From assembly GCA_012295275.1 (NCBI GenBank), contig CM022672.1, positions 7,564,001 to 7,628,000 on the forward strand: a DNA stretch of 64,000 nucleotides, written 5' to 3'. Shown here in pieces: positions 3,992 through 60,070 of this stretch. Source of the stretch: Chrysomallon squamiferum. Taxonomy: Eukaryota; Animalia; Mollusca. Positions within the stretch are counted from its first letter, which is position 1. Every line of letters begins with the position of its first letter. The notes under the pieces are model-generated. The model was not told where the DNA came from and did no database searches. It saw nothing but the letters and a program-made list of their open reading frames with translations. The position numbers were made by a program, and so were the translations under genes.

Positions 3992-4040
<49 letters not shown>

Positions 4041-6172: not shown

Positions 6173-7877
6173 CAGATTATTAATTTTACTTTGATAATTT
6201 CAGGATTGAAAATATAATATATTTAATACTTAGTATAACTGAGTTTTTAGCTTGAAAAGCAGTTAATTTAGCTGTCTTGTATAAAACAAAGACATTAAAT
6301 TCAGTCCTAACTGTTACTAACACTTGGCAGAAAGTTAACATTGACATTTAATGTCATTTAGGCAGCTTGTTTCTTTTCCACTTCCATATGCTTCTTCTGT
6401 ACTGGAATACAACAAATTAAACTATATAATATTCAAAAAAATATTTTTATCAGTACTTACATTTCAGAACAGGTCAGTGTTCAAGTAAGAATTATTTTCA
6501 GTTATTAGGAAACATCTCTTTTATCTTTGACATGTGACAGCACTGCAACTGCTTCACTGACACGAGACACCAGCACAGAGCAATACAGAAAACAAACAGG
6601 AGTAAACACATTATCCACATTATTAAGTTGTTGTTTTAATATTACTGTTTAAGAAACAGTATTCTGTGATACATTTGATGGAAGTTTGTATTGTATAGTT
6701 TGTTGATATATATATTTTTATATATGTTTGTAAATAGTTAACCACTGCCATAGATCTCATAAAATATTATGTATATTATATGCCTCTATGTGTTTTATTT
6801 CAAACATCATTAGGTTCTCACTTTTTACTTTTTTTATAAAGAATATGCCATTGTAATCCAGATTAAAATAATTAACACAGATTTAATCAGATTACAGATT
6901 TTATTAAAAGCTGCAGTACTATATTTTATTTAGATATTACCACTACTTAACAAGATTGTGAATTATTTTAAACAGTATGATATATGTGATAAAATGTGTT
7001 GTTTTTTAAATAAAATCTATATTCATTATATAAGTTTGTTTCACTTGATATTCTGTTACAAAAACAAACAAAACTATATGCATCTTTTAGTTATTTAATA
7101 TCAAAATATTTTAATTTATATTTTTATCTTCACAAATCCTAGTTGTCTGCAATTAGTTTTCATTGTGAAATATGTTCTCTCTTTTTTTTTTTTTTTTTTT
7201 TTTTTTCTTGTTTCTTCTTTTTTCTAAAACAGAAACAGTCTGTGGTTATTTTCATGATATAATCCAGGTTTATCTTCACAGTCTGTGGACAGGGATGTTT
7301 TCTTTCAACAGTGAACTGATACTGTTTTATTCATGCACACACCGCACACGCATACACAAAAACATATACACACACACACACAAGAACACACATTCAAAAA
7401 ACATACACACATAAAAATATCAGAACCAATGTTAGCCTACTACTGTTAGTAGACAAAGTCAACAAAAGTAAAAATAAAATTTGCAGATAATGTTTGTCGA
7501 TAATAGATGATTATGTAGTTAAATAGCTAATTAATTATTTACCTATCTACCATACATCCCAGGTAAAAAGAGAAATGGGCTATGAGTTTGTAGAATCGTA
7601 AAATCAAGAGTTATTTCATCAATAACCATTCTTTTCTGGTAACACTAAATCACACTCATTTAAAGACAATAATATATGCATCGATAATCACTGGATCATA
7701 GAATATTATGTCATTGCAAACTGACGATTTCATTTTGAGTATGCATCCTCGGTAAAAATAAATTACTGGTACAAAGCAAGTTGGTGCTGCGGATCACAAA
7801 TACTTTGACAGAAAATAAAACGGAAGAAGAAACAGCTTTCGTTTTCCACACTCGTTTTTTGTTGACGATTTTCCTTA

Positions 7878-10800
7878 ATGCTTACAAGACGTGCAATGCG
7901 TCTTTTGCGTTTTCAGGGTAGTTTGGTGGGTGCTGTTGTCGGAGACTGTATTGGTGGAGTATTTGAGGTTATTTGGGGCCCGGTGGAACTTGGCCCGATT
8001 TTAAAGCAGGTCGAAGATCTTGAAAAGAGTAGGTGGTGTTGACTACAACAGGGGTTTTCAAACTTTTTGACTTGCGGACCCCTTTATATTTCAGGCTTTA
8101 CCTTAGGGACCCCCTTATAAACGCTTATGAAATTTATAATAAATATTTGCTTAAAATAACATATATAAAATCAAACTGCCCATAAAAAGTATTCGCTGTC
8201 CACGGACCCCCTGTCTTGTACTTGCGGACCACAGTTTGAAAACCCCTGGACTACAACTATTAATGTAGTTATACCATAACACAATAAGTGAAAGTGAAAT
8301 AAATAGTTTGTTATTTACAGCTTTGTTAAACTTAAAGGCATTTTCAATATTCCACAGCATTAGTCAACATTTCTCTAAACATTGTTGAAGTAATTGTATT
8401 TACATTTTAGATGTGACATTCATTTGTTTTTACAAACAAAACAAAAATAAATAAATAAACAGAAATATATACAAATCGACAGACATACATGCACACAGAT
8501 ACATAGATGTAAATATATAACATAAAGATATAAATTTATAGATACAAATACCAATTTTGTACATAAACTACTAGAATACATACTGGACAGAGTGCTTCTA
8601 CAAATATAGATTAATTCATAAACACTAGAACACAAGTATATGCAGAAACTAACCTATGGATATAAACACAATACACAAAGTACACTGCTAATGATTTATA
8701 TGAATGTGATACTAGACACAGTTTTATAATTATTATAACACTATCAAAATAAGTGTAATATTTATGATAGTAATAAAATACATAACTACAAAGTTATGAA
8801 CATAATTATGTTTTGAGATATTCAGAATAGCAGACATTTGTATTTTTTAAATTTTATTATAAAATTTATTATTTATTTCATGTTTGTTTTCACGATTGTA
8901 GAGAATCGGTTAATAAATGAATGGCAAAATACAAATTGTATTACAAATATTTAATTTTTTTATTATATATATATATAAATAAATAAACATATATATATAT
9001 TTATTTATTTTATTTATTTATTTATTACGTAATTATTTTATGTTTGATTTTGGTGTTACAGAGTATGAATTACTAAAAGATGGAAAGAAACCACATCTTC
9101 TGCCATATACAGATGACACAGCCATGGCTCGGAGAGTTGCTAAATCTCTGGTGGAAAAAAAGAAGCTGGATCTGAAAGACTTAGCAAAACAGTAAATAAA
9201 CACAAAATGTTGTCCTCATCATTCAGGAGCTTATATATCAACATGTTATTATGATTTAAACTGGACCAGTCAGGTCCAAATTGTAGTCATTAACAAGAAT
9301 TGTGATCTTTCAAGCAGTTTTCTCAACAATAAACAAATTTATTTTCTTTTGGTATTACTTGAGTCCAAATGATGTATATATTGTTTTCGAAATCTTTATT
9401 TAAAAAATACATTCTGATAACTTCTCTTCAGATTTTGTGAAGACTATTTCAATGAACCTGGCCGAGGGTATGGTGGAAATGTGGTCAATGTTTTTAAAGC
9501 TTTGAGTGAACCTGGTCTTGTTGATGTGTTGAGGCCAGCTAGGGAACAGTTTGATGGTGAAGGTTCCTATGGTAACGGAGGCTGTATGAGAATCTCCCCA
9601 GCTGCATTGTTTGCTTTTAGTGATAAATTTGAAAAGCTGCAGGTTGGCTGGAATAATTTGTATGAAACTTTTAAAAAAAAGATAATTTTTACAAATACTA
9701 AAACGTTTTTGTCTAATTTAAAAAAAAAAAAATTGTCAGTGATGAGATTTCTGATAAGATTATTCATATAAAACAGACAAGCTCTGTGTAAACACACACA
9801 CACACACACACACACACACCCAGGGTGTCTCAATAAAATATATACACACAGCTTGCTACAATTAATAAGTTGAAAATGAATGTATGCAAATACACATTGG
9901 AGTGTATACATTTTACTGAGACACATTGTACATATATGTATGTATGTATACATATTTTGTTTTGTTTTCTAATTCAGGATATTTCTGTGAAGATAACTCA
10001 GATAACACACTCACACCCACAGGCTGTCCAGGGAGCTGTGTTACAGAGCAGTGCAGTCGACCTTGCCCTTCGACTTGACAACAAACAAGAAGTCAACACT
10101 GACAGGTTCATTGACAAACTCATTGAGCGGATAAAACCACTGGAAGAAAGTTACAAGTCAAAAAACCACACAAAGACTTCTAAAAGCAAAAAGTCAAAAA
10201 GGTCTGTTAATTCATTTGGGAATATTTTTGAATTTATAATACACTGATATACATGTTATAGCAAACTTATATATATAATATGTAGTAAGGAATATTTTAT
10301 ATCTTCTTGACTATGTAGGTTAATATCCAGGACTGGGTTGTAATAAACAGAATACCGTGGTAAGTCCTATCATGTCATAAATCAAAGTAAATGTTAAAGA
10401 AACTTTGCTGCTACGTAACATAATATTTGAACAAACTCATCAGCTCAGCTAATAAATAATTAGTAGACACAACAAAACGTACAACAGTAATTAACAAGAT
10501 GTGATAAAATCCTGAATAACAATGATGAAAATTTAAAATTATATATATATATAATTTTAATTTTTATTTTTCATTGTGTTAAAATACAAGCTCTTGCATA
10601 GATAAATCTTTTACTGGATAAATCCATTATTTATGTTTTCACCCATGGTAGAAAATATATATATATATCTAATTAACTACAGTCTATGTAAGTGAAATAG
10701 TAGGATTCAAATTTGTATATGTGATATACATAATACTGGTATTTGCTGATACATATACAATTACAGACTGGATACATACTGTTCCAAACTGGAAAAGATC

Positions 10801-11785
10801 AGAGAATTCCTACAAAGGACAGATGTGACTCCAGCAGAAGTTGAGGAAACTCTGGGTAAAATATTTTATTAACACATGCTTTAAATTTATTTATATAGGT
10901 CAACATTTCATGTGAAAATTAAGAAAAGCATTTTGCTACAGACCCTGCTAAAAAAAACGCTCTGAAAAGAACATGTTTTTTAAACCTTCTCCCCCTTGCC
11001 CGTATAATATGAATCACTGATTAAGGGGGAAAAAAACTTAAATAAAAATATAATTTTCTTTTTTTCAGGTAATGCTATTTAAAAATATTAATAAATATTT
11101 TTGTATTTTCAGGTAATGATATCTCTGCATTAGGGTCAGCACCAACAGCCGTCTACTCATTTCTCAAGGCTCTTAAACCAATCAATGGAATTGAAGTGAG
11201 ACTTTTTTTAATTTTATACTCTCCAGTTTGCCTGTGTTATCCAGAATTTAATTTTTCAACTTACAGATCAGTTTTATTTTTATTAAAATACATTAATCAG
11301 TTATTAAATACACAATTTAAAAAAAGACATAAATCTATTTTGAATGGTTATGAAAAGAATATATATATTTTTTTTTTTTAAACTATAATATCAATATATT
11401 TTCGTTTTTTTATTGTTGATTTATTAAAAATTATTTATTAAATTGTTTTTTTTTTTTTTTTTTTAAATTTGATTGTTTTTTTAATTTTTAATTTTATTTT
11501 GTTATGGGAGGGTCTGTCTTAAGAATGCAAACTAACAAAACTTAGTTGTTTTTTTTCTAATTTATGTTGCAGAACAGGAATGGATTTGAAAGGACTATAA
11601 TCTATGCCATTCACATGGGAGGTGACACTGATACCATAGCAACAATGGCTGGGGCCACTGCGGGAGCTTTCTATGGACTAGAAGCTATTCCAAAATCCTG
11701 GCAGGCGTGTTGCGAGGGAACGGAAGATGCCAAGAAATATGCTGAACAATTACTGGATTTACAGATTCAAACTACTCGAGTCTAA
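7878..11785 (+). CDS. ADPRS: ADP-ribosylhydrolase ARH3-like, copy 2. Seven exons: 7878-8028, 9062-9191, 9432-9642, 9978-10201, 10767-10855, 11113-11195, 11573-11785
   Basis: Exon sizes and phases match copy 1, except exon 4 is 18 nt longer. The TDDT and DTDT metal-binding motifs are intact and I saw no stops or frameshifts. Confidence 0.92.
8049..8248. mobile_element. 200-bp hAT-type MITE in ARH3 copy 2 intron 1
   Basis: TIR CAGGGGTTTTCAAACT at both ends, with a perfect 8-bp TSD GACTACAA (8041-8048 and 8249-8256). Confidence 0.9.
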
Positions 11786-27453: not shown

Positions 27454-27927
27454 CTACATCTGTGGTAAATCTCTTTTATGTTGTCTTTCATGTTCCCATC
27501 GTCTGTTTTTAGATGTGAATTCTTCACCACAGTATCTGCAAGTAATGGTCCCAGTGTGCAGCTGCATGTGAATGGACAGTTCATACTTATCCGAAAAATG
27601 TCGAGGACAGAGACTGCAGTGAAAAAATTCACCTGTGTGTACTCTCATGTGCCTTTTCAGATTGCCCTGGTATTCAGTACGGAAATCGCAGTGTTGACAT
27701 TTGTGCATTTTGACATCACGGAACTGAGAATTCATGAAAGATTGGTAACTCAGTGGTGAAATTGATGATCCTGGCATCTGAAAATCAATTTTTAATGCCA
27801 TGTCATCTGCACCGCTTTCCATTGTTGACCCTTTTTCATCGAGGATGCAGTCTGAGTTCTTGCTAACAGAGCCTGATGCATCTGGTAAAATATCAGAAAC
27901 TTTGCTCTGTCCATCACCCTGTGAATT
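27454..27927 (-). CDS. Gene A terminal exon A2: three C2H2 zinc fingers
   Basis: Phase-0 acceptor ttttcag|AAT. Fingers: CQHC...HMRVH, CSLC...HMQLH, CRYC...HERQH. Has its own stop. Confidence 0.85.
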   Translation of the reverse strand, partial: NSQGDGQSKVSDILPDASGSVSKNSDCILDEKGSTMESGADDMALKIDFQMPGSSISPLSYQSFMNSQFRDVKMHKCQHCDFRTEYQGNLKRHMRVHTGEFFHCSLCPRHFSDKYELSIHMQLHTGTITCRYCGEEFTSKNRRWEHERQHKRDLPQM

Positions 27928-28759: not shown

Positions 28760-29035
28760 CTAACTTTGGTTAAAGTCTGAATGCATCTCGTCGTTGCCTG
28801 CTTTAATATTTAACAAAAATAGCTTTTCTTGTTCCCTTTGTTTCTTTCGTTCTCGATATTTCCTCATTCTTATCTTTGTCTTTTCATTATAGGCCAGTCT
28901 CTGTTCGTAAGTCATGCAAGCTGACCAACCATCTTTGGAAACTCGGCACCGACGTGTGCTCGACATGAAACCACAGCGATTGCCTGCCTGAACAACCCAA
29001 GATGGTTTCGATCTCCGATGTATAAGAGTATTCAT
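28760..29035 (-). CDS. Gene A putative alternative terminal exon A1: basic helical peptide (EQRLAYNEKTKIRMRKYRERKKQREQEK), no zinc finger
   Basis: Phase-0 acceptor ttctgtctttgcag|ATG, with 276 nt open to its own stop. Confidence 0.6.
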   Translation of the reverse strand: MNTLIHRRSKPSWVVQAGNRCGFMSSTRRCRVSKDGWSACMTYEQRLAYNEKTKIRMRKYRERKKQREQEKLFLLNIKAGNDEMHSDFNQS

Positions 29036-30039: not shown

Positions 30040-30338
30040 CTTAAAATCAGTATCCGTAACAGTTTCATCTGACGTGTTCAAAGTACTGTTTGCTTGAAAA
30101 TTATTGACCGACTGTTCAGACGTGTTCCCTGTGTTAGTGGACTGCTGATCACTGCTTTCTTCTGTTGGGATCTGAATACTTGTACCACCACTATCTACAA
30201 ATGTGTCAGTTTCATCTTTTATTACCACAGAGTCTGGTAAAGGCATTGCTATTTTATCTGATAGATCTGCCGTTGCACGGGGCTCTTCACAAAATGACTC
30301 GGCAGCCAGACTCATTACATAGTTTGCATCAACCTTTT
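30040..30338 (-). CDS. Gene A common coding exon 2: acidic/Ser-Thr linker with VIKDE, ending DFK at a phase-0 donor
   Basis: The acceptor ttgttacag|AA completes a GAA codon from the phase-1 donor. The donor is AAG|gtatgt. The structure parallels gene B exon 2. Confidence 0.78.
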
Positions 30339-30578: not shown

Positions 30579-31110
30579 CTTTTTTGTTATTTGGAGAACC
30601 AACAAGGGAATCCATTGTGCTTCTTTTAGTCCCTCTACAAGGTGATGCAGTGTGGGTAGGCCATTTTGTACTTTGTTCATGTGATGTCTCAAATTCAGTC
30701 AACTCCTCCAATGATGCAGATGTGATTGTGTGTGTTCTTCCATGTAAGGATGATGAGGGCTGCGAAGAAGTAGATTTTCGGTAGCGGTTTACCATGGTAT
30801 CGACAGATTGCCTCTGTCCCCATCTTGAATTGGACATCTTAGCTGGAGCTATATTCTCAACATCTGTGTTTTTCTCAGGTAGTTTTTTAACTGTTTTGAA
30901 GGCCTTTGTGCAGTAACTTTCACTTATCACTTGACCAGTGCTCTGGACAAACTCACTGAGAACATATCTCTCCTTTTTGATGTTGTCTATTTCCAGAGCC
31001 AGGTATCCACTCAGTTCAACACCTTGCTCAAAGTGGAGATAATCGCGACACAGCTTCTGCATTGCATCAATGAAGGAAACAAAGAACTCAACAGAATACT
31101 GCTTATCCAT
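30579..31110 (-). CDS. Gene A common coding exon 1: conserved unassigned N-terminal domain (MDKQYSVEFF...ESYCTKAFKTV) plus a Ser/Thr-rich linker
   Basis: The exon starts at 31131 after the acceptor tgtttccag, with ATG at 31110 and a phase-1 donor after KKG. The first ~75 aa are clearly homologous to 59482-59260. Confidence 0.8.
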
Positions 31111-33349
31111 TATGCAATTTTCAGCATAAATCTGGAAACAGAAAAGAAACAAGGTCAATAATGTGTGGTCTTAAATGTTAAAACTGCTTAGTCTTCCTTA
31201 ACCTAAACAAATTAAACCAAAAAAAATTAAGTCTTTAAATAAAATGCAAAGAGAAAAATATAAATAATGTGGTTTTACATTAATCTTTTTATTTCTTCTT
31301 ATTATTTTTTTTTTTTTTTTTTTTTGCTGTGTGTCACGTTTTAGATCAGTTTCATAATGAATTATACTAACAGTCACAGTTAGAAGAAAGCTAAAAACGA
31401 AATGTCCACTGGTGTCTATCAGTTCCACAAATATTTTACACAACTCTCCAAACTATATGGTGGCTAATGAAAACTGATATTTAAATTGTTCTATCTGCTA
31501 AAAAAGCGCAAAGTACCATTTTCCTTTTGACATCATAGGATGTCAGTGAAGTGATAATTAAAATATATTATACTGAAATTCACAGAGTATTTACAGATCT
31601 AGATAGAATGAATACAAACTAGAATAGTTTTTAGTAATAACCACAATGATCTTATCCTCTGTTTAATAAAAACCTAACAGTGGACCTGCAATCAGTATAT
31701 CAAAATATATTATAAAACAAAAGCACTCAACTTTAGCATAGGTACACTATGTAGAACTATTTATTATCTAAAATCAAATAAATGAATAAACAAGTTTCAC
31801 ACCCTTTATGGATGATTTAGTTGTTATGATCTATACTCTGTGAAGATAAAAGGGATTGACAACCCAGAATGGTGATACTTTATATTACAGGACCCAATGT
31901 TTAAAGGCTTTGGAGGAACACTGTTCAACTATCTGAATATTGATTCAAGAACCAATGAAACAGCAAAGAGATCCATTATAAAACCATTCTAAAACAATAA
32001 TATGCATTATTAGTAAAAGGATAATGGTCTGTATATAAGCTATTGTGAAGCATTTCATCTAAAAACTGAATGTTGATCTATTGTTAAAAAATTATTTTTA
32101 CATTTTTCTAAATGTCAGTTATTTCTATCTATATAACTGATATGGAAAAAAATAATAATATTTAAATAAATAAATAACCATTATTACAATTATTTTGGCA
32201 GTATAATCAAGTATGATAAAAGTACAATGTGGTTTTTTCCCTTACTGAGACTTCATATACACACATCAGGTAAATACAATCACCTAGATTTAAATTATGT
32301 TACTTTTGTCAAGCATATTTACAAAAATCATTTCTTGACTTAAACAAAAAGACAAATGATAAAATTAAGATTTGTATGAGGTCTGTTTGCAAAAATAAAT
32401 ATAAATAAAATAGCGCAGTATCTTTAAATTTGAGTTCAGTGATCTTGCAGTCAAGTTGTACATTTCATATGCACTAGAAAGGAATAATGCTATTTAAATG
32501 ATTATATTATTAAAATACATTAATTTATAAACTTAATATTATTCAGTGCATGTTGTTTATGTTTTTAATAACTTATTGCTTTTCTGTATTCTGACGTTTA
32601 TCATACATATAATATGAATAGATTCAGAAATGAATGAATTATGTAAATATTTCTTTGCCATAATGCTGGGTGAATGAATGTATATATTCAATAACAATAT
32701 AATAATTTTTTTTAAAAACACAAAAAACCCACTATAGTAGTGAAATTGTGTGTGTGTGTTATTATTTACAAACTGTTTTAATTTCTTTAGGGCAAAAAAA
32801 AAAAGTCTAATTAAAATACCATTTTAAATGGTGTCCAAACTTATAAATATTATTTTGTTGCTATTCTATATGCATACGAACCAAACATTTAGGGATGTCT
32901 AACACTAATGCTATAACATACTAATACTCATAGTCATGATACTGCAATGGCAAAGTCATGTGAAAGTGGGTTGTATTCAATATGGGAGTACACCTTGTAA
33001 ATTGTAATTGATCATTGTTTAGGGTATAGAAGGATTAAATTCCCATTATAATTTTGTTTAAATATTACTAATGCAAACTCAGATCGATGCTGGGTACAAT
33101 AACTAATCTAAATGTATATATCACTACTTGTACAGTAGTAATACTAAGTCTAATAGGCTCCGCTGACGCGCTTGCATAAACATATTGATGATAATTGATA
33201 GTCATACATTGACTGGGAAAGCTCCAGTCTTGTGACGTTTATTAATAATTTCATTTTCAAATAACAAATTCTAAGAGAATCATATGAATTATAAAACAGT
33301 TGGTTCTTAATTAAATGCGACCTATATTACATGTTTATAACTTTATATT

Positions 33350-33895
33350 TCAGGTCAAAATACTGAAATAGTCCGTCGTTTATTTCTCCGACAACCAGTC
33401 CAATGTTTTGACCCTTTGTTTCATTAGTGTCTGAGAACTAATGATTTTCCAGCATCAGTATGCTCATTTTACATTTTTTACTTCATTTTCGTTTATACAG
33501 CTTCTCTGTCGGAACAATTTACAGCCTCACTTTATACAAATATCACAGAAAATCGTAATTTCGCAGAGTGTATTTGAAATTATAATAAATTTAATGAACG
33601 GAAATAACCGATTATGGCCGAATGTTGCCACATAATCATAATATTCTCAAGCCGCTAATTCAGCAGTATTTGTTTATAAGAAATCATTTTAATGTAATAA
33701 CAATATCATAAATAACATAATAAACTTGTAATTATATTCATCAATCTGACCTTTATACCCGAAACAAGTAGATTAAACAAAAACACGATTTCGCTTGTCC
33801 TGGATGATTTAGACTGGTTTCCTTTTGTTTCTCCGCTCATGGATATAGTCTTGATTACCACAGTTATCATATCTCGGATTAACCAATAGTATTGA

Positions 33896-35252: not shown

Positions 35253-35621
35253 TTATTTTATTTGAAAAATTGAAACATAAATATCTACATTAGTGATGAC
35301 CACAGGCTCAGTTATCCCATTATCTGATATTCTGATTACATCAACAAAACGGACAATCATTGTGATTTGCTCAACATGACTTACATCAGATGTGCTATCC
35401 AGAATTATGGAATAGTATTTAGCAGAGTTTACACGAGTTAAAATTTCCTTTTTTACAGCATTTTTTATAAGCTGTATAAGCTCGTTTTGGATATCTTTTC
35501 CAAGATAGTGAACCAGGGTTTCGTGAATCTTAACTCTGTGCATATGTTCATTCATGATAGGATCAAAAAGGTCCAGATATTCTTCAATTTTCAAAAAATT
35601 TCCGTTACCAGGGCAATACAA
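35253..35621 (-). pseudogene. Fragment of a hAT transposase (ZMYM1-like / DUF4371 region)
   Basis: GNGNFL...YLGKDIQNELI...YYSIILDSTSDVSHVEQITMIVRFV is the typical motif around the first catalytic Asp of hAT transposases. It is truncated at both ends. Confidence 0.8.
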
Positions 35622-36559
35622 TTTTTCATCTTTGAACTTCTTTGAAGTTGCATTTAAGTCTATGTAGCTAATTTATTTATATTTGTCTGGTATATGTTTT
35701 TAATCATTTTCGATTATTAGTATTATAATTTTTATATGTTTTAATTTTTTAAATTTATTGTGTGTGTGTAATTGTTTATTAAAGTATTTTTAGACGCTCG
35801 TAGCTATATGTTGTTTATTATGAGTGTATTTTGTGTAACTAATGTTAGTTTATTTATATTGACCTAGATGTCATGTTTTGAGAGGTTGAATGAAATATAT
35901 CCAAAACTGCTTTTGATGAAGAGAAACGACATATAAAACATATTTATTTGATGAGACAATATGATTACAAATACTTCAAATAAATAAAAATGCCAAATTT
36001 TATCCAGTATTAAGCTGATACTGAGTGATTTTCGAAAATTTCCGTAACTTTAAATATTTTGTTGTGCATTCTGCTAATTCAGATAGAAAATACTTCAGCA
36101 CCAAGAGTTCGCAGTCTGATCGTTTTCATTATGAACCAAAACAGAATAACACACACAAAACAGTATAACACTCACTAACGTCAGTCTCAAGCAGATTAAA
36201 TCTCGTATCGGCAAATGAAAACCGTGTATTGCTATTTTCCTGTCAGTAGCTCTGTTTAAAAGTATGCAGAATTTAATCGAATAAATAAATAAATGATCAA
36301 GAGATTTTGCAAAATGATTATATATAACTTGAAATAATCATCTGTCCACCATGTCACGATTCCACTGTAATGGGGTAACGTGGCGGCTGTGTAATATTTA
36401 TATTACTTCTCACTTTGTTACGTGCCCAAACATTTTGTTAATAACTGTTTTGCACTTACTAAATCTCAAGCTTAATAATTTATTTATTTATATATTTTGT
36501 TGTCGTAGCTGACAAAAATGACGTCAGTGGTCGTTGTTCCGTCTGTTTCATAATTAAAA

Positions 36560-39077: not shown

Positions 39078-39413
39078 TCATCTATGGCTTTTTTCATGTA
39101 ACACCAAACCTTTCTGAGAAGAGAAAGTTTTATCACAAACACGACACTCGAGTCCCCCTGCATGTCCTTTAAGGTGAATAAATAGCTGATATCTGTCATA
39201 GAAGTAGCTTGGACACAAGTGGCAGCGATAGAAGTCACCACTGTGTCGACGTTGATGACGTTTCAGATTGCCAGGCTGGTTGGTCTGATAAGCACACAGA
39301 GAACATTTATGCATCTTTATAACAGCTTTTGAACACGGCCGTCTCTTCCTCCACTCTGCACACCCTCCATCAGAATACTCAGATTCATTGTATGTGTCAT
39401 TGTCTGTCCTTTC
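39078..39413 (-). CDS. Gene B alternative terminal exon B7: three C2H2 fingers
   Basis: Phase-0 acceptor tttttcag|GAA, with 33 open codons before MHKCSLC. Fingers begin CSLC, CHLC and CRVC. Has its own stop. Confidence 0.8.
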   Translation of the reverse strand, partial: ERTDNDTYNESEYSDGGCAEWRKRRPCSKAVIKMHKCSLCAYQTNQPGNLKRHQRRHSGDFYRCHLCPSYFYDRYQLFIHLKGHAGGLECRVCDKTFSSQKGLVLHEKSHR

Positions 39414-40374: not shown

Positions 40375-40998
40375 TTATTTGTGCAAGTGTGACTTTTTGT
40401 GCTTGGCTAAACCATCATATGACACAAACAGCTTTCCACAAAATTCACAGGCCAGTTTGGAAAAATGAAGTTTCAGATGTTTCTTCAGCCGATAGGCATC
40501 AGAAAAGTGACAAGGACAGAGGTGGCAGTTAAAAAAGTCACCACTGTGGATTCGCTGATGACGTCTGAGGTTGTGAAAGTAGGATGTGTGGTAAGAACAC
40601 TGACTACACTGGTAACAGTTTTCACTTCTCTGAGAATTAAACTTGACACTGTTACCCGCAGATACATATTTCACATTTGTGGAAGATTTGGTCCCAAACA
40701 GATTTTCATGCATGATATTCTCTTGTGTTTGCGTCATGAAGCCTTCAGAAGTCTGATCAGACACATTGGTTTGTCCAGTCAATTGGCCATGGACATCGTT
40801 GCAACCAGCTATGTCACTAGTAACTCTTTGATGTCCTGTGATTTTGAAGTTAGAACTACCACTTGTATAAAAACCAGGATCTAATCTAGTGACATCATCA
40901 TGGTTCTGCATCTTCCTTTCCTGATCCTGTTGAAACTGCATGGATGATTTCATGTCTTCACTATTCTTGTACACTGATCTTTGATCCCGTACACATTT
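40375..40998 (-). CDS. Gene B alternative terminal exon B6: three C2H2 fingers
   Basis: Phase-0 acceptor ctgctttctag|AAA. Fingers begin CSQC, CHLC and CEFC. The stop overlaps an AATAAA. Confidence 0.8.
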   Translation of the reverse strand, partial: KCVRDQRSVYKNSEDMKSSMQFQQDQERKMQNHDDVTRLDPGFYTSGSSNFKITGHQRVTSDIAGCNDVHGQLTGQTNVSDQTSEGFMTQTQENIMHENLFGTKSSTNVKYVSAGNSVKFNSQRSENCYQCSQCSYHTSYFHNLRRHQRIHSGDFFNCHLCPCHFSDAYRLKKHLKLHFSKLACEFCGKLFVSYDGLAKHKKSHLHK

Positions 40999-41554: not shown

Positions 41555-41810
41555 CTGTTGAGAGTACATAAAACTATACCATGTCACGAGATACACTGCT
41601 ATGAAGTATTTTGTTGTGAATTCATAAAACCATACCAAACTGTGAGGTACATTGCTATGTTGTGTTATGTTGAGAGTACACTAAACTGTACAGTACCATT
41701 AGATACCCTGATGTGAAGTGTTATACTATACCAAATCATGAAATACACTGGTATGAAATGTTATGTTGAGAGTACACTAAACTGTACCATGCCACAAGAT
41801 ACACTGCTAC
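41555..41810. repeat. Degenerate minisatellite, ~45-50-bp unit
   Basis: Recurring gttgagagtaca(c)taaact.tacca...agatacactg(c)tatgaa. Confidence 0.65.
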
Positions 41811-43289: not shown

Positions 43290-43646
43290 TTATGTCCTAC
43301 TCATCATTGCCTCGTGATTTTTCTCATGTCTTTTCAGTGATTCATCAGTGCTGTACTTTTTCCCACAGAATCGACACGTAGGTGTGTTGATGTGAACCTT
43401 CAGATGCTTCATAAGTCTGTGTTTGTCTGAGAAGTGACACCTACACAGGTGACAGTGAAAGAAATCTCCTGTGTGTATTCGTTTGTGTCTTTTCATAGCA
43501 TGCTGGTAAATAGTCTGATAATTACACGAGTCACAGAAGTACATCCTCTTGCCAGACTGTGAAACCATTCTCCTTTTCATAATCCGCATTTCTCGTTCTT
43601 GTCTCCTCCTATAGTTCACCACTTGTAACACACCAACACTGTCATG
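43290..43646 (-). CDS. Gene B alternative terminal exon B5: basic stretch plus three C2H2 fingers
   Basis: Phase-0 acceptor attttttag|CAT. Fingers begin CDSC, CHLC and CRFC. Has its own stop. Confidence 0.8.
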   Translation of the reverse strand, partial: HDSVGVLQVVNYRRRQEREMRIMKRRMVSQSGKRMYFCDSCNYQTIYQHAMKRHKRIHTGDFFHCHLCRCHFSDKHRLMKHLKVHINTPTCRFCGKKYSTDESLKRHEKNHEAMMSRT

Positions 43647-44856: not shown

Positions 44857-45288
44857 CTATCTAAATCCCATTCTATGTTTGCTCATGTGAGAATTTAGTC
44901 CACTCATAGACTGACACTGTTTAAAACAGATCTTGCACTTCAGTTCCCCAACATGGCCTTTAAGGTGTCCCTGAAGCTCATAATTGTTGATAAAACTTCT
45001 ATGACAGAGGTGACAAGGAAACCGTTCTCCAGTATGCACACGTCTGTGTCGAATGAGATTGTATTTGAGCTTTGTTTGGTAACAACATTCACTACACTTC
45101 AAAATTTCACTGTCCTCAGCTTTCTTTTCACCTGTCCGCTGCTCTTGTCTGATCCAAGAGGGAACCGGTTTTGACCGAGATCCTCTATTTCCCAGCATCC
45201 CTGATTTAGAAACAGTCTGATTATATTTTCTGAAATCTGACACAAGATTCTGTAGCATGTCCATGGCATCGCCTCCCATCATGGAACT
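44857..45288 (-). CDS. Gene B alternative terminal exon B4: three C2H2 fingers
   Basis: Phase-0 acceptor ttgttttgtag|AGT. Fingers begin CSEC, CHLC and CKIC. Has its own stop. Confidence 0.8.
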   Translation of the reverse strand, partial: SSMMGGDAMDMLQNLVSDFRKYNQTVSKSGMLGNRGSRSKPVPSWIRQEQRTGEKKAEDSEILKCSECCYQTKLKYNLIRHRRVHTGERFPCHLCHRSFINNYELQGHLKGHVGELKCKICFKQCQSMSGLNSHMSKHRMGFR

Positions 45289-46256: not shown

Positions 46257-46733
46257 TCAGCTCTTCAGAATGTGATTTTTGCAGTGATGCTTGACGTGAC
46301 AGTCTAGGCCATGTTTAGATGTAAACTGCTTAAAACAGAACTGACACTTCAGTTTTCCTTCATGTCCCTTCAGATGCAGTCTGAGATGATGTGAGTCACA
46401 GAAGTGACAGGGACACAAGTGACACTTGAAAAAGTCACCACTATGAATTCGCTGATGGCGTTTCAGATTCCCCAGCTGTTTGCTCTCATATGCACAATGA
46501 TCACATTTGTAAACTTTCTGAAAGAAATGTAGATCTCCATGATTCTCTGTTTCTTCAGACTGCCTCACAGAACTAGCAACATGACATCCAGAACTACTGA
46601 AAACATTTCTTTTATCACAAGCTTCGTTAGAGCCCAATGTTGATGAAAAGCTCCTGTCCGGAAAGTTGTGTTTTTGAAGAAGAGGACCTAATCCATTCTG
46701 TGCACTCTGATAGACCATGGCAACATTAGTTTG
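46257..46733 (-). CDS. Gene B alternative terminal exon B3: three C2H2 fingers
   Basis: Phase-0 acceptor tttttctag|CAA. Fingers begin CDHC, CHLC and CQFC. Has its own stop. Confidence 0.8.
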   Translation of the reverse strand, partial: QTNVAMVYQSAQNGLGPLLQKHNFPDRSFSSTLGSNEACDKRNVFSSSGCHVASSVRQSEETENHGDLHFFQKVYKCDHCAYESKQLGNLKRHQRIHSGDFFKCHLCPCHFCDSHHLRLHLKGHEGKLKCQFCFKQFTSKHGLDCHVKHHCKNHILKS

Positions 46734-48477: not shown

Positions 48478-48876
48478 TTAATCACTGGGAAAATCCTCAA
48501 AGTTCTCATTTGTTAAATTAATGTGACTTTTCAGATGATATTTCAATTGGTAGTTGTCTATGTAGGTTTTATCACAGTGTGGACATTTTAGCCTGTCACC
48601 GGTGTGAATTCGCATGTGTCTTGTCAAATTATAGTTCCTGCTGGCTTCATAACCACAAATGTAACATTTGAAGATTTTACATGCAGAGTAGTGGCCATCT
48701 CCTTTACTAAAGTAGTTAGCAGAGCTGAAAGCTGACTGACTGGCCTCAGACATTACACCTTCAATTCCTTTCTTTCGTAAGCCTAATTCCCTATCTGCAG
48801 TACACTTTGAAAACAACTTGGAGTGAGCAGGCAGTGGGTTACGTTCCACTGGAAGCAGACACTGGGTCTTCTGGCT
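48478..48876 (-). CDS. Gene B alternative terminal exon B2: two C2H2 fingers
   Basis: Phase-0 acceptor attttctag|AGC. Fingers CYICGYEASRNYNLTRHMRIH and CPHCDKTYIDNYQLKYHLKSH. Has its own stop. Confidence 0.8.
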   Translation of the reverse strand, partial: SQKTQCLLPVERNPLPAHSKLFSKCTADRELGLRKKGIEGVMSEASQSAFSSANYFSKGDGHYSACKIFKCYICGYEASRNYNLTRHMRIHTGDRLKCPHCDKTYIDNYQLKYHLKSHINLTNENFEDFPSD

Positions 48877-50032: not shown

Positions 50033-50434
50033 TTAATTATTTACTGCAGTCCTGTCAGGAATACAAGTTTGTTGTGAACCTGTCTCTTGAGAAAAGTGCT
50101 CATTCACACACAATGGCAGTGAGACTCGGTTATGACTTTTCATGTGATATTTCAACTTGTAGTTGTCGATGAATGTTTTGTCACAGAAACAACACTTGAA
50201 TCTTTCACCTGTGTGTGTGCGCATGTGTCTGATGAGATTATAGTTTCGTTTTGCTTCATACCCACAAAGATCACACCTGTACACCTTCAAGGTGCAGCAC
50301 TGAAAGAGGGAAGCATTACAGAGGATGGAACTGGTCTGTCCTCGGAACATAGACAGTGGGTCAGGGCTTCGCTGTGAAAGCCAGTCAAAGTCAGAAGTGT
50401 GAGCTTTGTGTTTCACTGTCTTCATCTTCAGAGT
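50033..50434 (-). CDS. Gene B alternative terminal exon B1: two C2H2 fingers
   Basis: Phase-0 acceptor tttttctag|ACT. Fingers CDLCGYEAKRNYNLIRHMRTH and CCFCDKTFIDNYKLKYHMKSH. Has its own stop. Confidence 0.8.
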   Translation of the reverse strand, partial: TLKMKTVKHKAHTSDFDWLSQRSPDPLSMFRGQTSSILCNASLFQCCTLKVYRCDLCGYEAKRNYNLIRHMRTHTGERFKCCFCDKTFIDNYKLKYHMKSHNRVSLPLCVNEHFSQETGSQQTCIPDRTAVNN

Positions 50435-50872
50435 CTAGAAAAAAACAAAAGACTTGGGTTGTTTTATCCATAGCCAAGTATCCTCACTGTGGGTTAATTA
50501 GTTAACAACAGTTCTTTTTATCAGATAGACACTCCTCACTGACAGATTTATGCTGTAAACTGAAAACGCTTTGCTTTTTTTAATATTTTATTTTATATAT
50601 ATATATATATTACAAAACCAGTTAATAACTACTGAAAATATGGAAAACTGGATAACACTAGTTGACTAATATTACTACTACTTTAAATAAAACATGATGC
50701 AAATAGGTAAAATGAGAAAATAATTATTTAATCCAAATATCTTTTTGTTAAATTAAAAACGTGTCTGAGTAATTTTTCTTAATTACTGCAGAGGTTACAA
50801 CCTGTTCTAATAACTGACTTTGAAAGTTTGTCAACAGGAAAATATTAAAACAATTTTTAAGGCAAATTGGAT

Positions 50873-53810
50873 AGTTATGAAAATTTAAATATTTTCATTC
50901 GGTTTGTGTAAATAATTTGCATTTATAACACTGTCAGTGAATGTAATAAAACAGTATTACAGTTTTTTTAAAGATATGTAATGAATTCGCTATGTTAATG
51001 TGCATGTACATTTGCATACATGCTTATCAGTATAAATATTAATATTTTTAAAAGGTATGGTATGTACGTTTTAAAACATTTTCCCATACATTATATTTAT
51101 AATCTCTATATAATGACAAATTTATATTATAAAAATCTCTCATATAAATTTTTGTTTAAAAAAAAAAAAAGCATAATTATATACAAACTATATATCAAGT
51201 CATTAAACTAGAAAAGTGATGTTGATAAGAAACTCTTTACATTTACAGTAATTCTAAAAGAAAATCTTTTTTCGTAATATATTAAACAATTATTAAATCA
51301 TTTATTCAAAGATTACACTTTTTTTACATTGTCTGGAATTCTAAAATCAGCAATATTGTAATTATATATAAACCCATCTATACCTTTACAAAACCATTTA
51401 ATGTCTAAGGTTTTAATTATTAAATAGAATTCTGACAGTACTTAAGGAAATAAACAAAGATGTTATCATTGTGTTATTAATTTCCTCCAGCCTGCAGAAA
51501 GTGAACTGTTTATAAGACTCTACAGGAGAGATTTTCTAAAACAAAATGGTATTAAATTAAAGATATAATCATGATATACTCTTTACATACAAACATTTTA
51601 CAACTGAACAATTTCAATGGTTGAAGTGGTAAGAATGAAACATAGATACCAAAACCTCATACCAAAATAAAATTAGTTCATCCAACTTCAACATGTCCAC
51701 TGAGACTTCACACTATAACTGGATCTGTTATGATCTGTCATCTTTTCATGTTTATCATTTTTCATTTTTGATATTTTATGTTTTAAAAGAGATCATTTTT
51801 TCATTGCTCCTATGGTTTCAACTATGTTTTGGGGTGATTTGGGGCGTTTGGGATTTTTAAATTTTATTTTTATAATTTCAATTTCTTTGACTGCTTACTT
51901 AACAATAGACTCTTACATCATCATGGAGCTTTAGTCTTGCACTGGTACTTCTATCCTTCTTGCACAGTATTCAACCATTCACCAATGCCAAATGGTACAT
52001 GGATATATAGCTTTTTTTAACTCTTCAGTATTGTAAGATTTGATTCCTTATAAAGAAATATTCTTAAATGTTGTAGTGAATTCACTGAAAATATACATCT
52101 GTTGTTGTAGTCAGTGACTATCACCAGCTTCTCTGTCTTGGAAGATAACTTGTCCTGTCCATTACAGAAAAACACTTGCTTTAATTATGTTATTGCTCAG
52201 AATATTGCTGAATGCTGGATTTTTATTCAGAATTTTTTTGTTGTAACTTGTATTATGTAAATCACAATACAATCAAAACTTGCATTAAGAATATTTCTGC
52301 CAATGAATCAGATCAATTGTGTCCACACTGCAAGCAGAACCAGTTATGAAAATTTAAATATTTTCATTCAGTTTGTGTAAATAATTTGCATTTATAACAC
52401 TGTCAGTGAATGTAATAAAACAGTATTACAGTTTTTTTAAAGATATGTAATGAATTCGCTATGTTAATGTGCATGTACATTTGCATACATGCTTATCAGT
52501 ATAAATATTAATATTTTTAAAAGGTATGGTATGTACGTTTTAAAACATTTTCCCATACATTATATTTATAATCTCTATATAATGACAAATTTATATTATA
52601 AAAATCTCTCATATACATTTTTGTTTAAAAAAAAAAAAAGCATAATTATATACAAACTATATATCAAGTCATTAAACTAGAAAAGTGATGTTGATAAGAA
52701 ACTCTTTACATTTACAGTAATTCTAAAAGAAAATCTTTTTTCGTAATATATTAAACAATTATTAAATCATTTATTCAAAGATTACACTTTTTTTACATTG
52801 TCTGGAATTCTAAAATCAGCAATATTGTAATTATATATAAACCCATCTATACCTTTACAAAACCATTTAATGTCTAAGGTTTTAATTATTAAATAGAATT
52901 CTGACAGTACTTAAGGAAATAAACAAAGATGTTATCATTGTGTTATTAATTTCCTCCAGCCTGCAGAAAGTGAACTGTTTATAAGACTCTACAGGAGAGA
53001 TTTTCTAAAACAAAATGGTATTAAATTAAAGATATAATCATGATATACTCTTTACATACAAACATTTTACAACTGAACAATTTCAATGGTTGAAGTGGTA
53101 AGAATGAAACATAGATACCAAAACCTCATACCAAAATAAAATTAGTTCATCCAACTTCAACATGTCCACTGAGACTTCACACTATAACTGGATCTGTTAT
53201 GATCTGTCATCTTTTCATGTTTATCATTTTTCATTTTTGATATTTTATGTTTTAAAAGAGATCATTTTTTCATTGCTCCTATGGTTTCAACTATGTTTTG
53301 GGGTGATTTGGGGCGTTTGGGATTTTTAAATTTTATTTTTATAATTTCAATTTCTTTGACTGCTTACTTAACAATAGACTCTTACATCATCATGGAGCTT
53401 TAGTCTTGCACTGGTACTTCTATCCTTCTTGCACAGTATTCAACCATTCACCAATGCCAAATGGTACATGGATATATAGCTTTTTTTAACTCTTCAGTAT
53501 TGTAAGATTTGATTCCTTATAAAGAAATATTCTTAAATGTTGTAGTGAATTCACTGAAAATATACATCTGTTGTTGTAGTCAGTGACTATCACCAGCTTC
53601 TCTGTCTTGGAAGATAACTTGTCCTGTCCATTACAGAAAAACACTTGCTTTAATTATGTTATTGCTCAGAATATTGCTGAATGCTGGATTTTTATTCAGA
53701 ATTTTTTTGTTGTAACTTGTATTATGTAAATCACAATACAATCAAAACTTGCATTAAGAATATTTCTGCCAATGAATCAGATCAATTGTGTCCACACTGC
53801 AAGCAGAACC
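50873..53810. repeat. Near-identical direct tandem duplication, unit 1469 bp (50873-52341 and 52342-53810)
   Basis: The text is identical at a 1469-bp offset, as are ORFs 51020 and 52489 apart from one residue. I noticed only about two substitutions. Confidence 0.95.
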
Positions 53811-56459
53811 ACCTGCTATTAATATAAAATAATTACAAATATATCCAGGGGTCCAGTTTTGTATTAGCATCAAAATATATTTTATGCCATTTCTTTTTTC
53901 TTTATTTTCCTTTTCTCTCCAATTAGCTTTCTGTTCCTTCATTTTTTTCCAAAGCTTTTCTTTGATTTTTAAAAAATATTTTTTGGTATGATGTTTTCTT
54001 CTTTTCCATCCAATTCTTTTTATCTGTTTTTTATTACATTAAAAAAATCCCTCTTCAGAGATTTTGTATTCTGGCATTTCCAAGCTTCAAGTTTCTCTTC
54101 CAGACAATTTTTATCTCTGCTGCTCTTAATCTTTCATTTTTGAATGTAGTGTGCTTTTGCTTAGACATACGTAATTAGGACAGTTATTTGATAAATATGT
54201 TTTTAATAATGACTATGTGTAGAGGTGAGCTATAGTTAAACACTTGTCATTTTTAGGAAAAGAAATAAAGAACAGGGACACTGAAGTTTAAACAGAGAAT
54301 GTTCTTCTCTTTGTGAAGAAAATGGGCTTTTTTCTGGGGGTTTTGTTCTTTTTTTATGTCACATCTGAAAGTTTCTTTATTTTTCACTGTTCTTTGGTAA
54401 GAAATATAAATCAAATTCTGTAGTAATGAAACATCAGGGCAAAGAAAGTAAGAAAGATTATTATATGTAAACTGTGTGCAAAGATCAGTTGAGATGAAAT
54501 GTGTTACACAAAACAGTAGTCTTGGAGATGTTGCATAATCAACTCTGAAATGCATGTTAGCAAAAAATAAAAATAAAATACAAAATAATAAAAATTTTAT
54601 AAAAAAAATTTTAAACCCTCTTTTTCTCTCTCAGTACAATGCAGGTGAAACCAAAAACAGATGAGAAACTAGCAGACAAAACTGAAATACAGCTTAAAGT
54701 ACATCAAATCAGAATCTGGCATAGCAAACAACTGTGTATTCAAAATTGGCTTCTTTATTTTTTATTTTTGGCAGCATTGATTTCAAAAGTTTACTGAAGT
54801 CCATACAATAACAAAAATAAAAATAAAATAAAAATTTAGAAAAGTAAAATGTTTCACATTACTTCCATAGTTAAAAAGGAAAAAACATTTTTCTTACTAC
54901 CTTCTAAATCTTAGAAATTTACATAGCAAAAGTCATAGTGTAATGCTGTTTTTGAATATTCTTATTTCCACATCAAAATAAATTAAAATGAAACATGTCA
55001 GAAAGATCTACAAACAATGTTTGTTCAAAACAGGTAAACAAAACAACAAGTTTCATTCAACAAATATTTCATCAGTTAAACTGAAGTAAAATCAATAAAA
55101 CATTTTAGTTTTAACATGAACTCATACTGCATGGGGATAAAACAGGGATTATGGGTTCACCATTTAAGTATAAATATATGTATAATTTCTGAATAGTGAC
55201 TACATAATCTTTCACTGTATGTTAGTGCTGATACCACAGACTCAGCAAATATTCCTACAGTATTTAGTAATAGATGATTACTCTATAATACTCAAGTAAT
55301 CAGTTCTGAAATATGTTTACTCTCGCCTATTCATATTGCCCTGTCTTATCAGATTACAATGATATACAAACAATAATTAAATACAGTAAGGCACATAATG
55401 GATACTGCAATCTTACAAAAATAGGTTCACAAATAATTAAAAGAAAATCTAACAATATGTTTAAATAACTGGAAGCAAACTTTTTTCTATATGTTTGTCA
55501 AATAAAAGATTAAACTGAAACACTTAGTTTACTTGTAACATCCAGCACCATTCTTGGTGGAGTTTTTTAATTTTCATTATGATTTTATTCAGAGTGGTCG
55601 GGTTCTCATTATTTTTTCATGTAGGCCAGTACTGGAGAGATGTCTAAAACATCTATTATTTATTGTTCAGAGGTGTTTAGCATAAATGTGCACCAATCAT
55701 TACTCTACTTTTATAACTTAATAATTTGGTTGTGCACTACAAGTAAAATTGAAGCTGTGCAAATGATGAAATATACAATATGGATGACATTACCACTTTT
55801 CAGTTAATTATTCTTCATAAATTCATGTTCCGTTTCAGATCTTTGTCTTCTTTTAAGCAAAACTTTACTTGTCAAGTATGTTTATTTGTAAAGATATTTG
55901 TTAAATTTCTATATGTAAAATGTGGCATCATAAATATATTTTTCAATTTATGAAAAGGATTCATTCCAAGTTACTATATTATTTAACTGTAGGCAATAAT
56001 TTATTATTTTTGTTAAATGTGTTTGTATGTTCTACAGCAAACAAAATAAGGAAATGGCCAGAAAATAATAAAAAGCAAACAAAATAACAGAAACTCTAGT
56101 TTCTTTAAAGTTAATCTGAATGATTTATTGCTATACAAAGTATATAATTAAAAAATTAAGAGGGATAAAACTTCAGCAAGAACAATATTGTTGGATTATC
56201 ACAACCATTTGGAATGGGTTTTTTGTTTGTATGTTGTGGAAGGTGATGTTTTTAAACACTGGGGAAGTTTCACATAGGATTCAGAACTGCCAGATATTTC
56301 AGTTTGCAGATAGTTATACAGAAATTATCTTTTAATAAAATATGTTAACAGTCATTCATTCACTCAGTTCTTGTACAGATTAGAAATATTTTTATAATTT
56401 TTATAATATTTATTTGCTTTGATGATTGTGAAAAATTATTAGTAAATTTTAAATCTTAA

Positions 56460-57097
56460 ATATACCATTAATCCATTCCAGCCCCTGGAAAACCACCCCA
56501 TTTTTTGTAACATGTTCTTAAATAAGAAAAATGTATTTATAAATGACAATTATTGTATAAAAAAAAAAATAAAAAGAATGTAAATAAATAAATTGGTTTT
56601 GTAAAGTGTATTCATCTTGGAGATTAGACAAATATTTTAATGCCTTTGGCTGGAGTTTTAGCCTTTATCAACTCCTGCTTCAGTATGGTACAATTCAGAG
56701 AAGTATTACATTTCTACTGCCTAGCCAAGTCGACTACATGCACACCTCACTTATGTTTTTCTATGATTTCATGCTTTATTTCAATGGATATCATCCATTT
56801 CTCAACACTGTCCTTTGCACTCACTTTCTTATGATCCATGGTTAGAAAAAAGAAATTTGGCAAAATACTGCACAAAAGGCGAGCACAACACAACAGAGAT
56901 GCTTCAACGGTGATAAACACATGATGTAAACGAGTGATATGCAGGATGCTGGGCAGTTGCTGTGTTGTTTGTTGTGCCAACTAGCAGCAGCATATCTTAA
57001 GCTTGGTCATCTCTTGGATTTTGGCTGCAACTCAAAGCAAAAAATCAACTGGGCGAATGTTTGTAACTCAGAAAACTTGTAAGTTGAAGTACCATTG
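56460..57097. mobile_element. Second, 5'-truncated and diverged copy of the same pogo/Tigger-like element
   Basis: It shares blocks with 1910-2509 (ataccattaatcc, ctgtcctttgcactcactttctta, gcaactcaaagcaaaaaat) and ends gtaccattg|ta. Confidence 0.7.
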
Positions 57098-57901: not shown

Positions 57902-58290
57902 CTTTAATTCTATGCTGCCACTGTTTTCTTCTCCTTCATGTCTCTGGCCATCAGAAAAAGAAGTATTCAGATGACTCTCCACATTAGCACCAGATGTGTT
58001 CAATGCTGAACAGCTTGTTACAGTAACATTTCCAGTACCATTATCTGGTCCGTCTATAAACATAATGTCATCATCCTCATCATTATCTTCTTCTTTTATA
58101 CTCAAGGGAAGGCGAATTGTTTCTGAATGTGAGCCTTCTGACTCTGTGATACAAGAATTGTTTGAACTTTGTGCATTAGTCTGCACAACATTGGTGCTAA
58201 TGTTGCTAACTGGAGTGAACTCTGAATTTTCCAAATTGGACACACTGGTTGCTGCAGCATATAACACATCAAGATCATTTGCTGTTTTCT
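57902..58290 (-). CDS. Gene B common coding exon 2: acidic linker (SIKEEDNDEDDDIMFID), ending ELK at a phase-0 donor
   Basis: The acceptor ttttaactatag|AG completes GAG. Length 389 nt. The donor is AAG|gtaatt. Confidence 0.8.
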
Positions 58291-58863: not shown

Positions 58864-59482
58864 CTTTAATCTGATCTGAATCTGTCACATCATCCTTCAC
58901 ATAATTTGAAACTAAAGATTCATTTCCTAATGCTGAAAAATGTTCAGATGTTGAAAGAACGGATTCTTCTGTTGTACTGTATGTCATTGTCATGGTTGGT
59001 CGAGCCTGGATCTCGTACGGTTGAGCATTTTTAGTAAGTGAAGCTTGAGTAAATGAAGAAGGAATTACCCTCTTGTTCTGAATCAAGTTCCTTTTCCTTC
59101 CAGGAGGTGAAAGATAATGTCGCTGAGGACCAAACCGACGCCGTATACCTATATGAGATGAAATGTCCTGAGAGGGTGGACTGGGAATATTTCTGTCAAA
59201 GTTATTACTGCTTTCTTTAAGGACACTTTCAATAGTTGGTGATTTTCTAGGGTTTCTCTGCACAGTTTTAAAAGCTTTAGTACAATAACTCTCACTAATG
59301 ACATCACCCATACTGGTGATCATCTCACTGAGCACATATCTCTCTTTCTTAAAATTGTCTATCTCCAGGTTGAGGTAGCCACTCAGCTCAATTGCCTGGT
59401 CGAATTCAAGAAACTCTCGACAACATTTCTGTATTGACTCCACTAATGACGTGAAAAACTGCACAGAGTATTGTTTTTCCAT
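58864..59482 (-). CDS. Gene B common coding exon 1: conserved unassigned N-terminal domain (MEKQYSVQFF...ESYCTKAFKTV) plus linker
   Basis: The exon begins at 59512 after tttttcag. An in-frame TAA upstream fixes ATG 59482 as the start. The donor is phase 1 (AAA G|gtaat). Confidence 0.82.
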
Positions 59483-60070
59483 TTTATTTTTTTACTGTGC
59501 TGATTGTGGTAACTGAAAAAAGAAAATTTAATTATGTGTATCTTGATGGTTACAAAATGGCTAAATTCCAATACATTCAATTTTTTTATGCCTAAAATAT
59601 GCTTTCAAATTATGTTCCCAACTTCATTTCACAACACTAAAATGACTGCAACTAAAACTACTTAGTAACAAATACAATCTTATGCCTCTACAGTTAATCA
59701 AGATATTACTGAAATGTAAATAATTTTAGAAAATCTGAAGTCTAATTTTTTTTTTTTTAAATAAAAAATCAACACATTACTGTTAACAGCTGTTGTATCT
59801 AGACAGTTCTGAACTGCAATTGGCATGTACAGCCCACCTAATTTAACTTACAATCAAACATTTTGTTTTCCATCTAATGTTTTAAATATTATTTTGGGTT
59901 ATATATAAACAAATCCAATTTTATATTTGCCTGTATTCTGTCAAATGAATGGTACATGTATAGTGATATCTGGGTCTAAGCCATTTTATATCTGTGAACA
60001 TGTAAAAGGGCAAAAACTATCTACCAATAAATCTGTCAAATTATTTGAATTATATATATATATATATATA

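Follow-up and report, generated by a model that had tools for sequence, protein, structure and literature searches.

Two tandem genes with alternative last exons

The 64,000-nucleotide stretch of Chrysomallon squamiferum DNA analyzed here (hereafter the window; GenBank assembly GCA_012295275.1, contig CM022672.1, positions 7,564,001 to 7,628,000) is AT-rich, at 29% G+C. Its minus strand carries two genes, A and B, each of which opens with a 74-residue N-terminal domain that is real, expressed, strongly conserved and apparently without a name. From the shared domain, the exon layout and the RNA joins we conclude that A and B are tandem paralogues, each with alternative ends. Their features, in window coordinates, are as follows.

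59261..59482, minus: gene B 74-residue N-terminal domain; predicted helix at residues 5-24, strands at 30-41 and 45-56, and a third near 61-68
58864..59512, minus: gene B first coding exon; ATG at 59482, 619 coding nt; acceptor 59512 from sequence only, donor joined in RNA
57902..58290, minus: gene B common exon 2; encodes a Ser-rich linker containing the IKEE motif, with the shared phase-0 donor at its end
50033..50434, minus: gene B alternative last exon, two C2H2 fingers; predicted, its join not among the RNA contigs
48478..48876, minus: gene B alternative last exon, two C2H2 fingers; one RNA contig to donor 57902
46257..46733, minus: gene B alternative last exon, three C2H2 fingers; matches Gigantopelta isoform X4 tail
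44857..45288, minus: gene B alternative last exon, three C2H2 fingers; matches Gigantopelta isoform X5 tail
43290..43646, minus: gene B alternative last exon, three C2H2 fingers; one RNA contig to donor 57902; matches isoform X6 tail
40375..40998, minus: gene B alternative last exon, three C2H2 fingers; matches Gigantopelta isoform X1 tail
39078..39413, minus: gene B alternative last exon, three C2H2 fingers; matches Gigantopelta isoform X7 tail
33751..33860, minus: gene A untranslated 5' exon of its own; RNA places its 3' end near 33751, the 5' limit is approximate
30889..31110, minus: gene A 74-residue N-terminal domain, by sequence identity to the gene B domain
30579..31133, minus: gene A first coding exon, from RNA contigs
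30040..30338, minus: gene A common exon 2; encodes a linker containing the IKDE motif and carries the shared donor
28760..29035, minus: gene A, alternative last exon 1 of two; encodes an Arg/Lys-rich basic stretch without a Pfam family; RNA joins in three of the four runs
27454..27927, minus: gene A, alternative last exon 2 of two; encodes C2H2 fingers; RNA joins in all four runs

The common coding exons of gene B (59482-58864 and 58290-57902) supply 1008 coding bases and end in phase 0. Downstream lie seven exons. Each has a polypyrimidine-AG acceptor and, in phase 0, an open frame 111-207 codons long that encodes two or three C2H2 fingers of differing sequence. In RNA contigs the two common exons were joined to each other, and the donor at 57902 was joined to 48876 (one contig, run X4) and to the exon starting at 43646 (one contig, run X1, whose loose end was located there). 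The Gigantopelta orthologue of gene B is represented by seven stored isoforms with a common 369-residue front. The finger tails of six of these best match six different exons of the window, at 62-78% identity; the tail of the seventh has no match within the window.

For gene A, the donor at 30040 was joined to 29035 in three of the four runs and to 27927 in all four, and a single contig extends from the domain-encoding exon all the way to the finger exon. Both last exons are in phase 0. The introns in the RNA joins of the two genes are all GT-AG on the minus strand. A further join, from 28736 (just behind the stop of alternative exon 1) to the acceptor at 27927, was present in two of the four runs, so that some gene A transcripts hold both ends in series with a stop between them. 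Basic Arg/Glu/Lys-rich tails like that of 28760-29035 (minus strand) also end the family proteins P0005, P0163, P0166 and P0172, and this tail may be another unnamed DNA-binding module.

Three repeats lie among the exons of gene B. Its long intron holds a near-perfect tandem duplication (50870-53810; period 1469 bases, 99% over 300 bases), either a recent duplication or an assembly artefact. An intronic repeat at 56389-57047 shows RNA-contig coverage far above its surroundings and many loose ends, and its minus strand resembles a decayed transposon fragment. Between two finger exons, at 41573-41806, are three degenerate copies of a unit of about 80 bases.

The N-terminal domain

The initial annotation had quoted one domain peptide for each gene, and both are present in the window, on the minus strand at 59482-59261 (gene B) and 31110-30889 (gene A). 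The two domains are identical at 52 of 74 residues (alignment score 284). The stretches behind them score -10, no better than shuffles (-27 +/- 11, n=200), and the similarity thus ends after KAFKTV, as had been claimed. The accompanying statement that the linkers cannot be aligned holds for A against B but not across the paralogues, which share an [IVL]KxE motif. Against the orthologues in the snail Gigantopelta aegis, the closest relatives that carry a name, the gene B domain is identical at 67 of 74 residues (linker 56%) and the gene A domain at all 74 (linker 60%). Together these comparisons mark a real domain boundary and a much stronger constraint on the domain than on the linker. An in-frame stop, read from the sequence four codons upstream of the gene B ATG, makes the domain the true N-terminus.

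An AlphaFold prediction gave one helix followed by a three-stranded meander, and the two structure models of the domain have one helix with two or three strands, which bears out the order of elements first proposed; the helix is predicted to be amphipathic. In all 89 distinct rows of the alignment, helix positions 9, 10, 13, 17, 21 and 25 and strand positions 31, 33, 37, 39, 41, 49, 51 and 55 are hydrophobic, and positions 49-51 form a run of three hydrophobic residues. We infer that these positions amount to a large non-polar surface for a fold made of a single helix and three strands.

The initial annotation saw no recognizable family and no hallmark of BTB, KRAB, SCAN or ZAD, and both points stood. 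Searches of Pfam and of PDB sequences gave no significant match for the domain, whether to BTB/POZ or to another described family. None of 39 aligned members matched a BTB Pfam family at E up to 10, a test in which the HMMER filters drop most matches above 0.1, and the N-terminal FxLRWN motif of TTK-type BTB is absent from the alignment and its column counts. The BTB core has about 110 residues, with five helices and a small sheet; the predicted models have 74 residues, one helix and two or three strands. ZAD carries four invariant zinc-binding cysteines; here C21 is the sole invariant cysteine (89 of 89 rows), and C67 is found in 53 of 88. SCAN and KRAB, which are all-helical, gave no Pfam match, and the models of our domain are beta-rich.

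A multigene family in molluscs

A word-seeded search of 121 candidates returned 103 matches, of which those with names belong to Gigantopelta and Haliotis, and an unfiltered phmmer search over 1.84 billion representatives returned 78 at E up to 0.001. Among 30 proteins checked for names, those that had one came from Batillaria, Babylonia, Littorina, Nucella, Biomphalaria, Pomacea, Haliotis and Gigantopelta and from the bivalves Solemya velum and Sinanodonta woodiana; one false match and one likely contaminant were also present. When 7,994 candidates were scored with a profile built from 39 domains, 417 proteins matched; the 120 of these matches that were listed added Aplysia, Physella and Bulinus. 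RefSeq isoform numbers reach X42 in Pomacea, X30 in Littorina and X13 in Aplysia. Genes with this domain form a multigene family in gastropods and two bivalves. Its description as lineage-specific holds only broadly, for a distribution that spans at least gastropods and bivalves and is far wider than the two genes on which it was based.

Of the 204 proteins stored, 200 have a single copy of the domain, which starts within the first 25 residues; the other four are the false phmmer match and its cluster mates. The 200 resolve into 112 distinct front ends, 22 of them represented by two or more stored proteins, although some of these 22 are made up of allelic copies and not of isoforms. Sets of 19, 12, 10, 8 and 7 proteins have a common front of 310-369 residues and differing tails. 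All 24 named front ends of Gigantopelta lie on one contig of 91,665,651 bases, and 12 of them have at least two different tails among the stored proteins. Four family genes of Haliotis rubra share a 1.0-Mb contig and six further family proteins a 668-kb contig; the genes are therefore clustered. The domain tree (103 domains, 75 columns, many forks open) splits into two subfamilies with support of 95/98. Subfamily 1, with a KERYVLSE motif, holds the window genes, the Haliotis DUF3504 genes and the bivalve members; subfamily 2 is spread across all sampled gastropod groups, and Gigantopelta and Haliotis have members in both. Automatic names given to family genes include 'ZBTB17-like', 'ZSCAN5A-like' and 'myoneurin-like'.

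The recognized C-terminal partners of the domain are C2H2, HTH_psq, BEN, HTH_Tnp_Tc5 with CENP-B_N, zf-Tnp_2, Nrf1_DNA-bind, other HTH and DUF3504, all of them known or likely DNA-binding ends as predicted from family matches; many family tails have no Pfam family. Within one Gigantopelta gene (LOC121383526) there are C2H2, psq and BEN ends. DUF3504 ends occur in many Haliotis, in some Gigantopelta and Pomacea and in both bivalve members; the two window genes have none. In Haliotis rubra LOC124287837, a subfamily-2 gene, one alternative end is of the Nrf1/EWG type (PF10491, E 3e-8; isoform X4, P0170). The linker motif [IVL]KxE, which we take to be a SUMO consensus, occurs in 51 of 75 linkers against 8.4 expected from shuffles, the rows being related and not independent.

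Neighboring sequence

Exons of an ADP-ribosylglycohydrolase gene extend on the plus strand over about 2200-11400 (PF03747 at 9421-9768, E 8e-7). Part of this gene is present twice, near 3440-4440 and 9400-10240, which suggests a local duplication. Between genes B and A, on the minus strand at 35256-35672, lies a frame of 139 codons with a weak match to DUF4371 (E 0.003, below cut-off), resembling a fragment of a hAT-type transposase.

Proposed role of the domain

We consider it probable that the domain is a self-assembly module, forming dimers or oligomers, that unites the alternative DNA-binding ends of this gene family. The constant domain and its low-complexity linker are spliced onto alternative last exons encoding predicted DNA-binding domains. 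Subunits would pair through the helix and an edge strand, and pairing would bury the many conserved hydrophobic residues of this small domain. Since the domain is identical in all isoforms of a gene and closely similar in paralogues, short ends could be combined into mixed complexes; isoforms and paralogues would pool ends of two or three fingers into assemblies with higher or mixed DNA specificity. The [IVL]KxE site of the linker, if sumoylated, would recruit co-repressors. We infer oligomerization from the architecture only: the single N-terminal copy, the two or three fingers of each gene B end and the alternative joins in RNA are consistent with it.

Several observations weigh against this proposal. 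The assembly role is argued by analogy of gene layout, and an N-terminal effector may equally recruit a cofactor as a monomer, as KRAB can. The very high identity among paralogues could equally reflect mixing or a single binding partner common to them all. The RNA contigs, from four runs that all belong to one study, include only two of the seven gene B joins, with one contig each. Several C-terminal partner matches fall below the Pfam cut-off, and such family matches are the basis on which the end domains are predicted to bind DNA. Many Haliotis members and both bivalve members, with their DUF3504 ends, appeared in these searches in one or two forms only, so that the domain does not need an exon array; this weighs against splicing of alternative ends as the purpose of the domain. 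The gene B model is of moderate quality (mean pLDDT 75), with residues 61-75 at 45-51.

The alternative that survives best, although we regard it as unlikely, is that the domain acts as a monomer on which a single conserved cofactor (a co-repressor or chromatin complex) docks, in the way that TRIM28 docks on KRAB. The surface-type residues agree with docking: across both subfamilies D42 and E53 are invariant and Q18, E32 and K46 nearly so. So do the small size, the near identity among many paralogues and the acidic net charge, whose median over 89 rows is -2 (range -6 to +1). Docking fits less well with a domain predicted to fold alone around a large conserved hydrophobic set, KRAB being largely unstructured until bound. 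Docking and self-assembly are not mutually exclusive. It is improbable that the domain is a remote member of a described fold family (a cut-down BTB, Roadblock/longin or another alpha-beta meander) for which the sequence searches were too weak. Direct contact with DNA or RNA, as a second nucleic-acid-binding module, is very improbable: some nucleic-acid-binding folds do combine a helix with a beta-meander, and subfamily 1 keeps a K-K-x-R turn, but the acidic median charge is unlike that of a DNA-binding domain, R48 is replaced by D in 30 of 89 rows, and these proteins already have dedicated DNA-binding ends.

A wider claim, which we regard as somewhat less likely than not, is that molluscs have an independent combinatorial transcription-factor system built on a domain of undescribed oligomeric fold. 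It would comprise two dozen or more clustered genes, many with up to about 40 alternative DNA-binding exons, partly captured from transposons (Crypton DUF3504, Tc5/CENP-B, psq, a piggyBac-type finger), and their products would combine with one another by way of the common domain. BTB, ZAD, SCAN and KRAB effectors define large lineage-specific regulator families of arthropods and vertebrates; our literature search turned up no mollusc-specific N-terminal effector domain. Were the claim true, the mollusc domain would fill the place of TTK-BTB in arthropods and of KRAB and SCAN in tetrapods. Misleading automatic names obscure this family, of which a single snail has at least 24 front ends and many isoforms, and a 75-residue profile now recovers members scattered under other names. 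Convergence on the lola design can now be tested, as can a role in the neurons of molluscs (the family is present in Aplysia) and the acquisition of DNA-binding exons from transposons.

Comparison with known systems

We found no published description of the domain or of such mollusc arrays in a search largely without subscription papers and supplements, whose DUF3504 and C2H2 lists might include members. The accessible parts of a survey of transposon-derived factors in molluscs (PMC10027918) and of the KIAA1958/DUF3504 paper (PMC3212892) do not mention or describe this front end. According to the latter, DUF3504 derives from a Crypton recombinase, and human KIAA1958 has two alternative DUF3504 last exons. 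Many family members have a DUF3504 end in common with KIAA1958, QRICH1, ZMYM2-4 and WOC, and their N-terminal domain lies outside the DUF3504 and QRICH1 Pfam models.

The N-terminal BTB, ZAD, SCAN and KRAB domains of C2H2 proteins act in oligomerization or partner recruitment, according to the available portion of PMC12774644. The ZAD, SCAN and KRAB families likewise combine a small N-terminal domain, clustered genes expanded in one lineage and a variable linker before zinc fingers. The mollusc domain differs from ZAD in having one invariant cysteine instead of four, and from SCAN and KRAB in being beta-rich instead of all-helical. Those families mostly have long finger arrays in separate genes, not alternative short ends.

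The closest likeness in gene layout is to the Drosophila genes lola and mod(mdg4), which encode BTB transcription factors of the Tramtrack group and in which, as in the mollusc genes, a constant N-terminal domain and linker precede many alternative DNA-binding ends. BEN ends also occur in factors of this type. The ends of gene B, with two or three fingers, resemble those of multimerizing TTK-type factors. In the part of PMC11426971 available, lola is credited with 20 isoforms, 17 with different C2H2 ends, and mod(mdg4) with at least 30; their end types overlap with those of the mollusc family in C2H2 and psq, and TTK-type BTB, which forms hexamers, was not found outside arthropods, molluscs included. 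In the window, constant front exons lead to same-phase last exons (seven of phase 0 in gene B, two in gene A) that encode different predicted DNA-binding domains. The RNA joins and RefSeq isoforms place the domain in front of alternative last exons, the position in the gene that BTB has in lola, as the initial annotation proposed. There are also differences. In sequence and in predicted topology the constant domain is distinct from BTB, and the mollusc family consists of many paralogous genes each with an array, unlike lola and mod(mdg4). Those two genes use trans-splicing, whereas cis-splicing would suffice in the window, where all exons lie on one strand and in order. The layout is best read as a molluscan equivalent of the lola/mod(mdg4) design, carried by another domain, one that has no name and probably serves in assembly: a system that works like lola and, judged by sequence and predicted topology, is not a BTB system.
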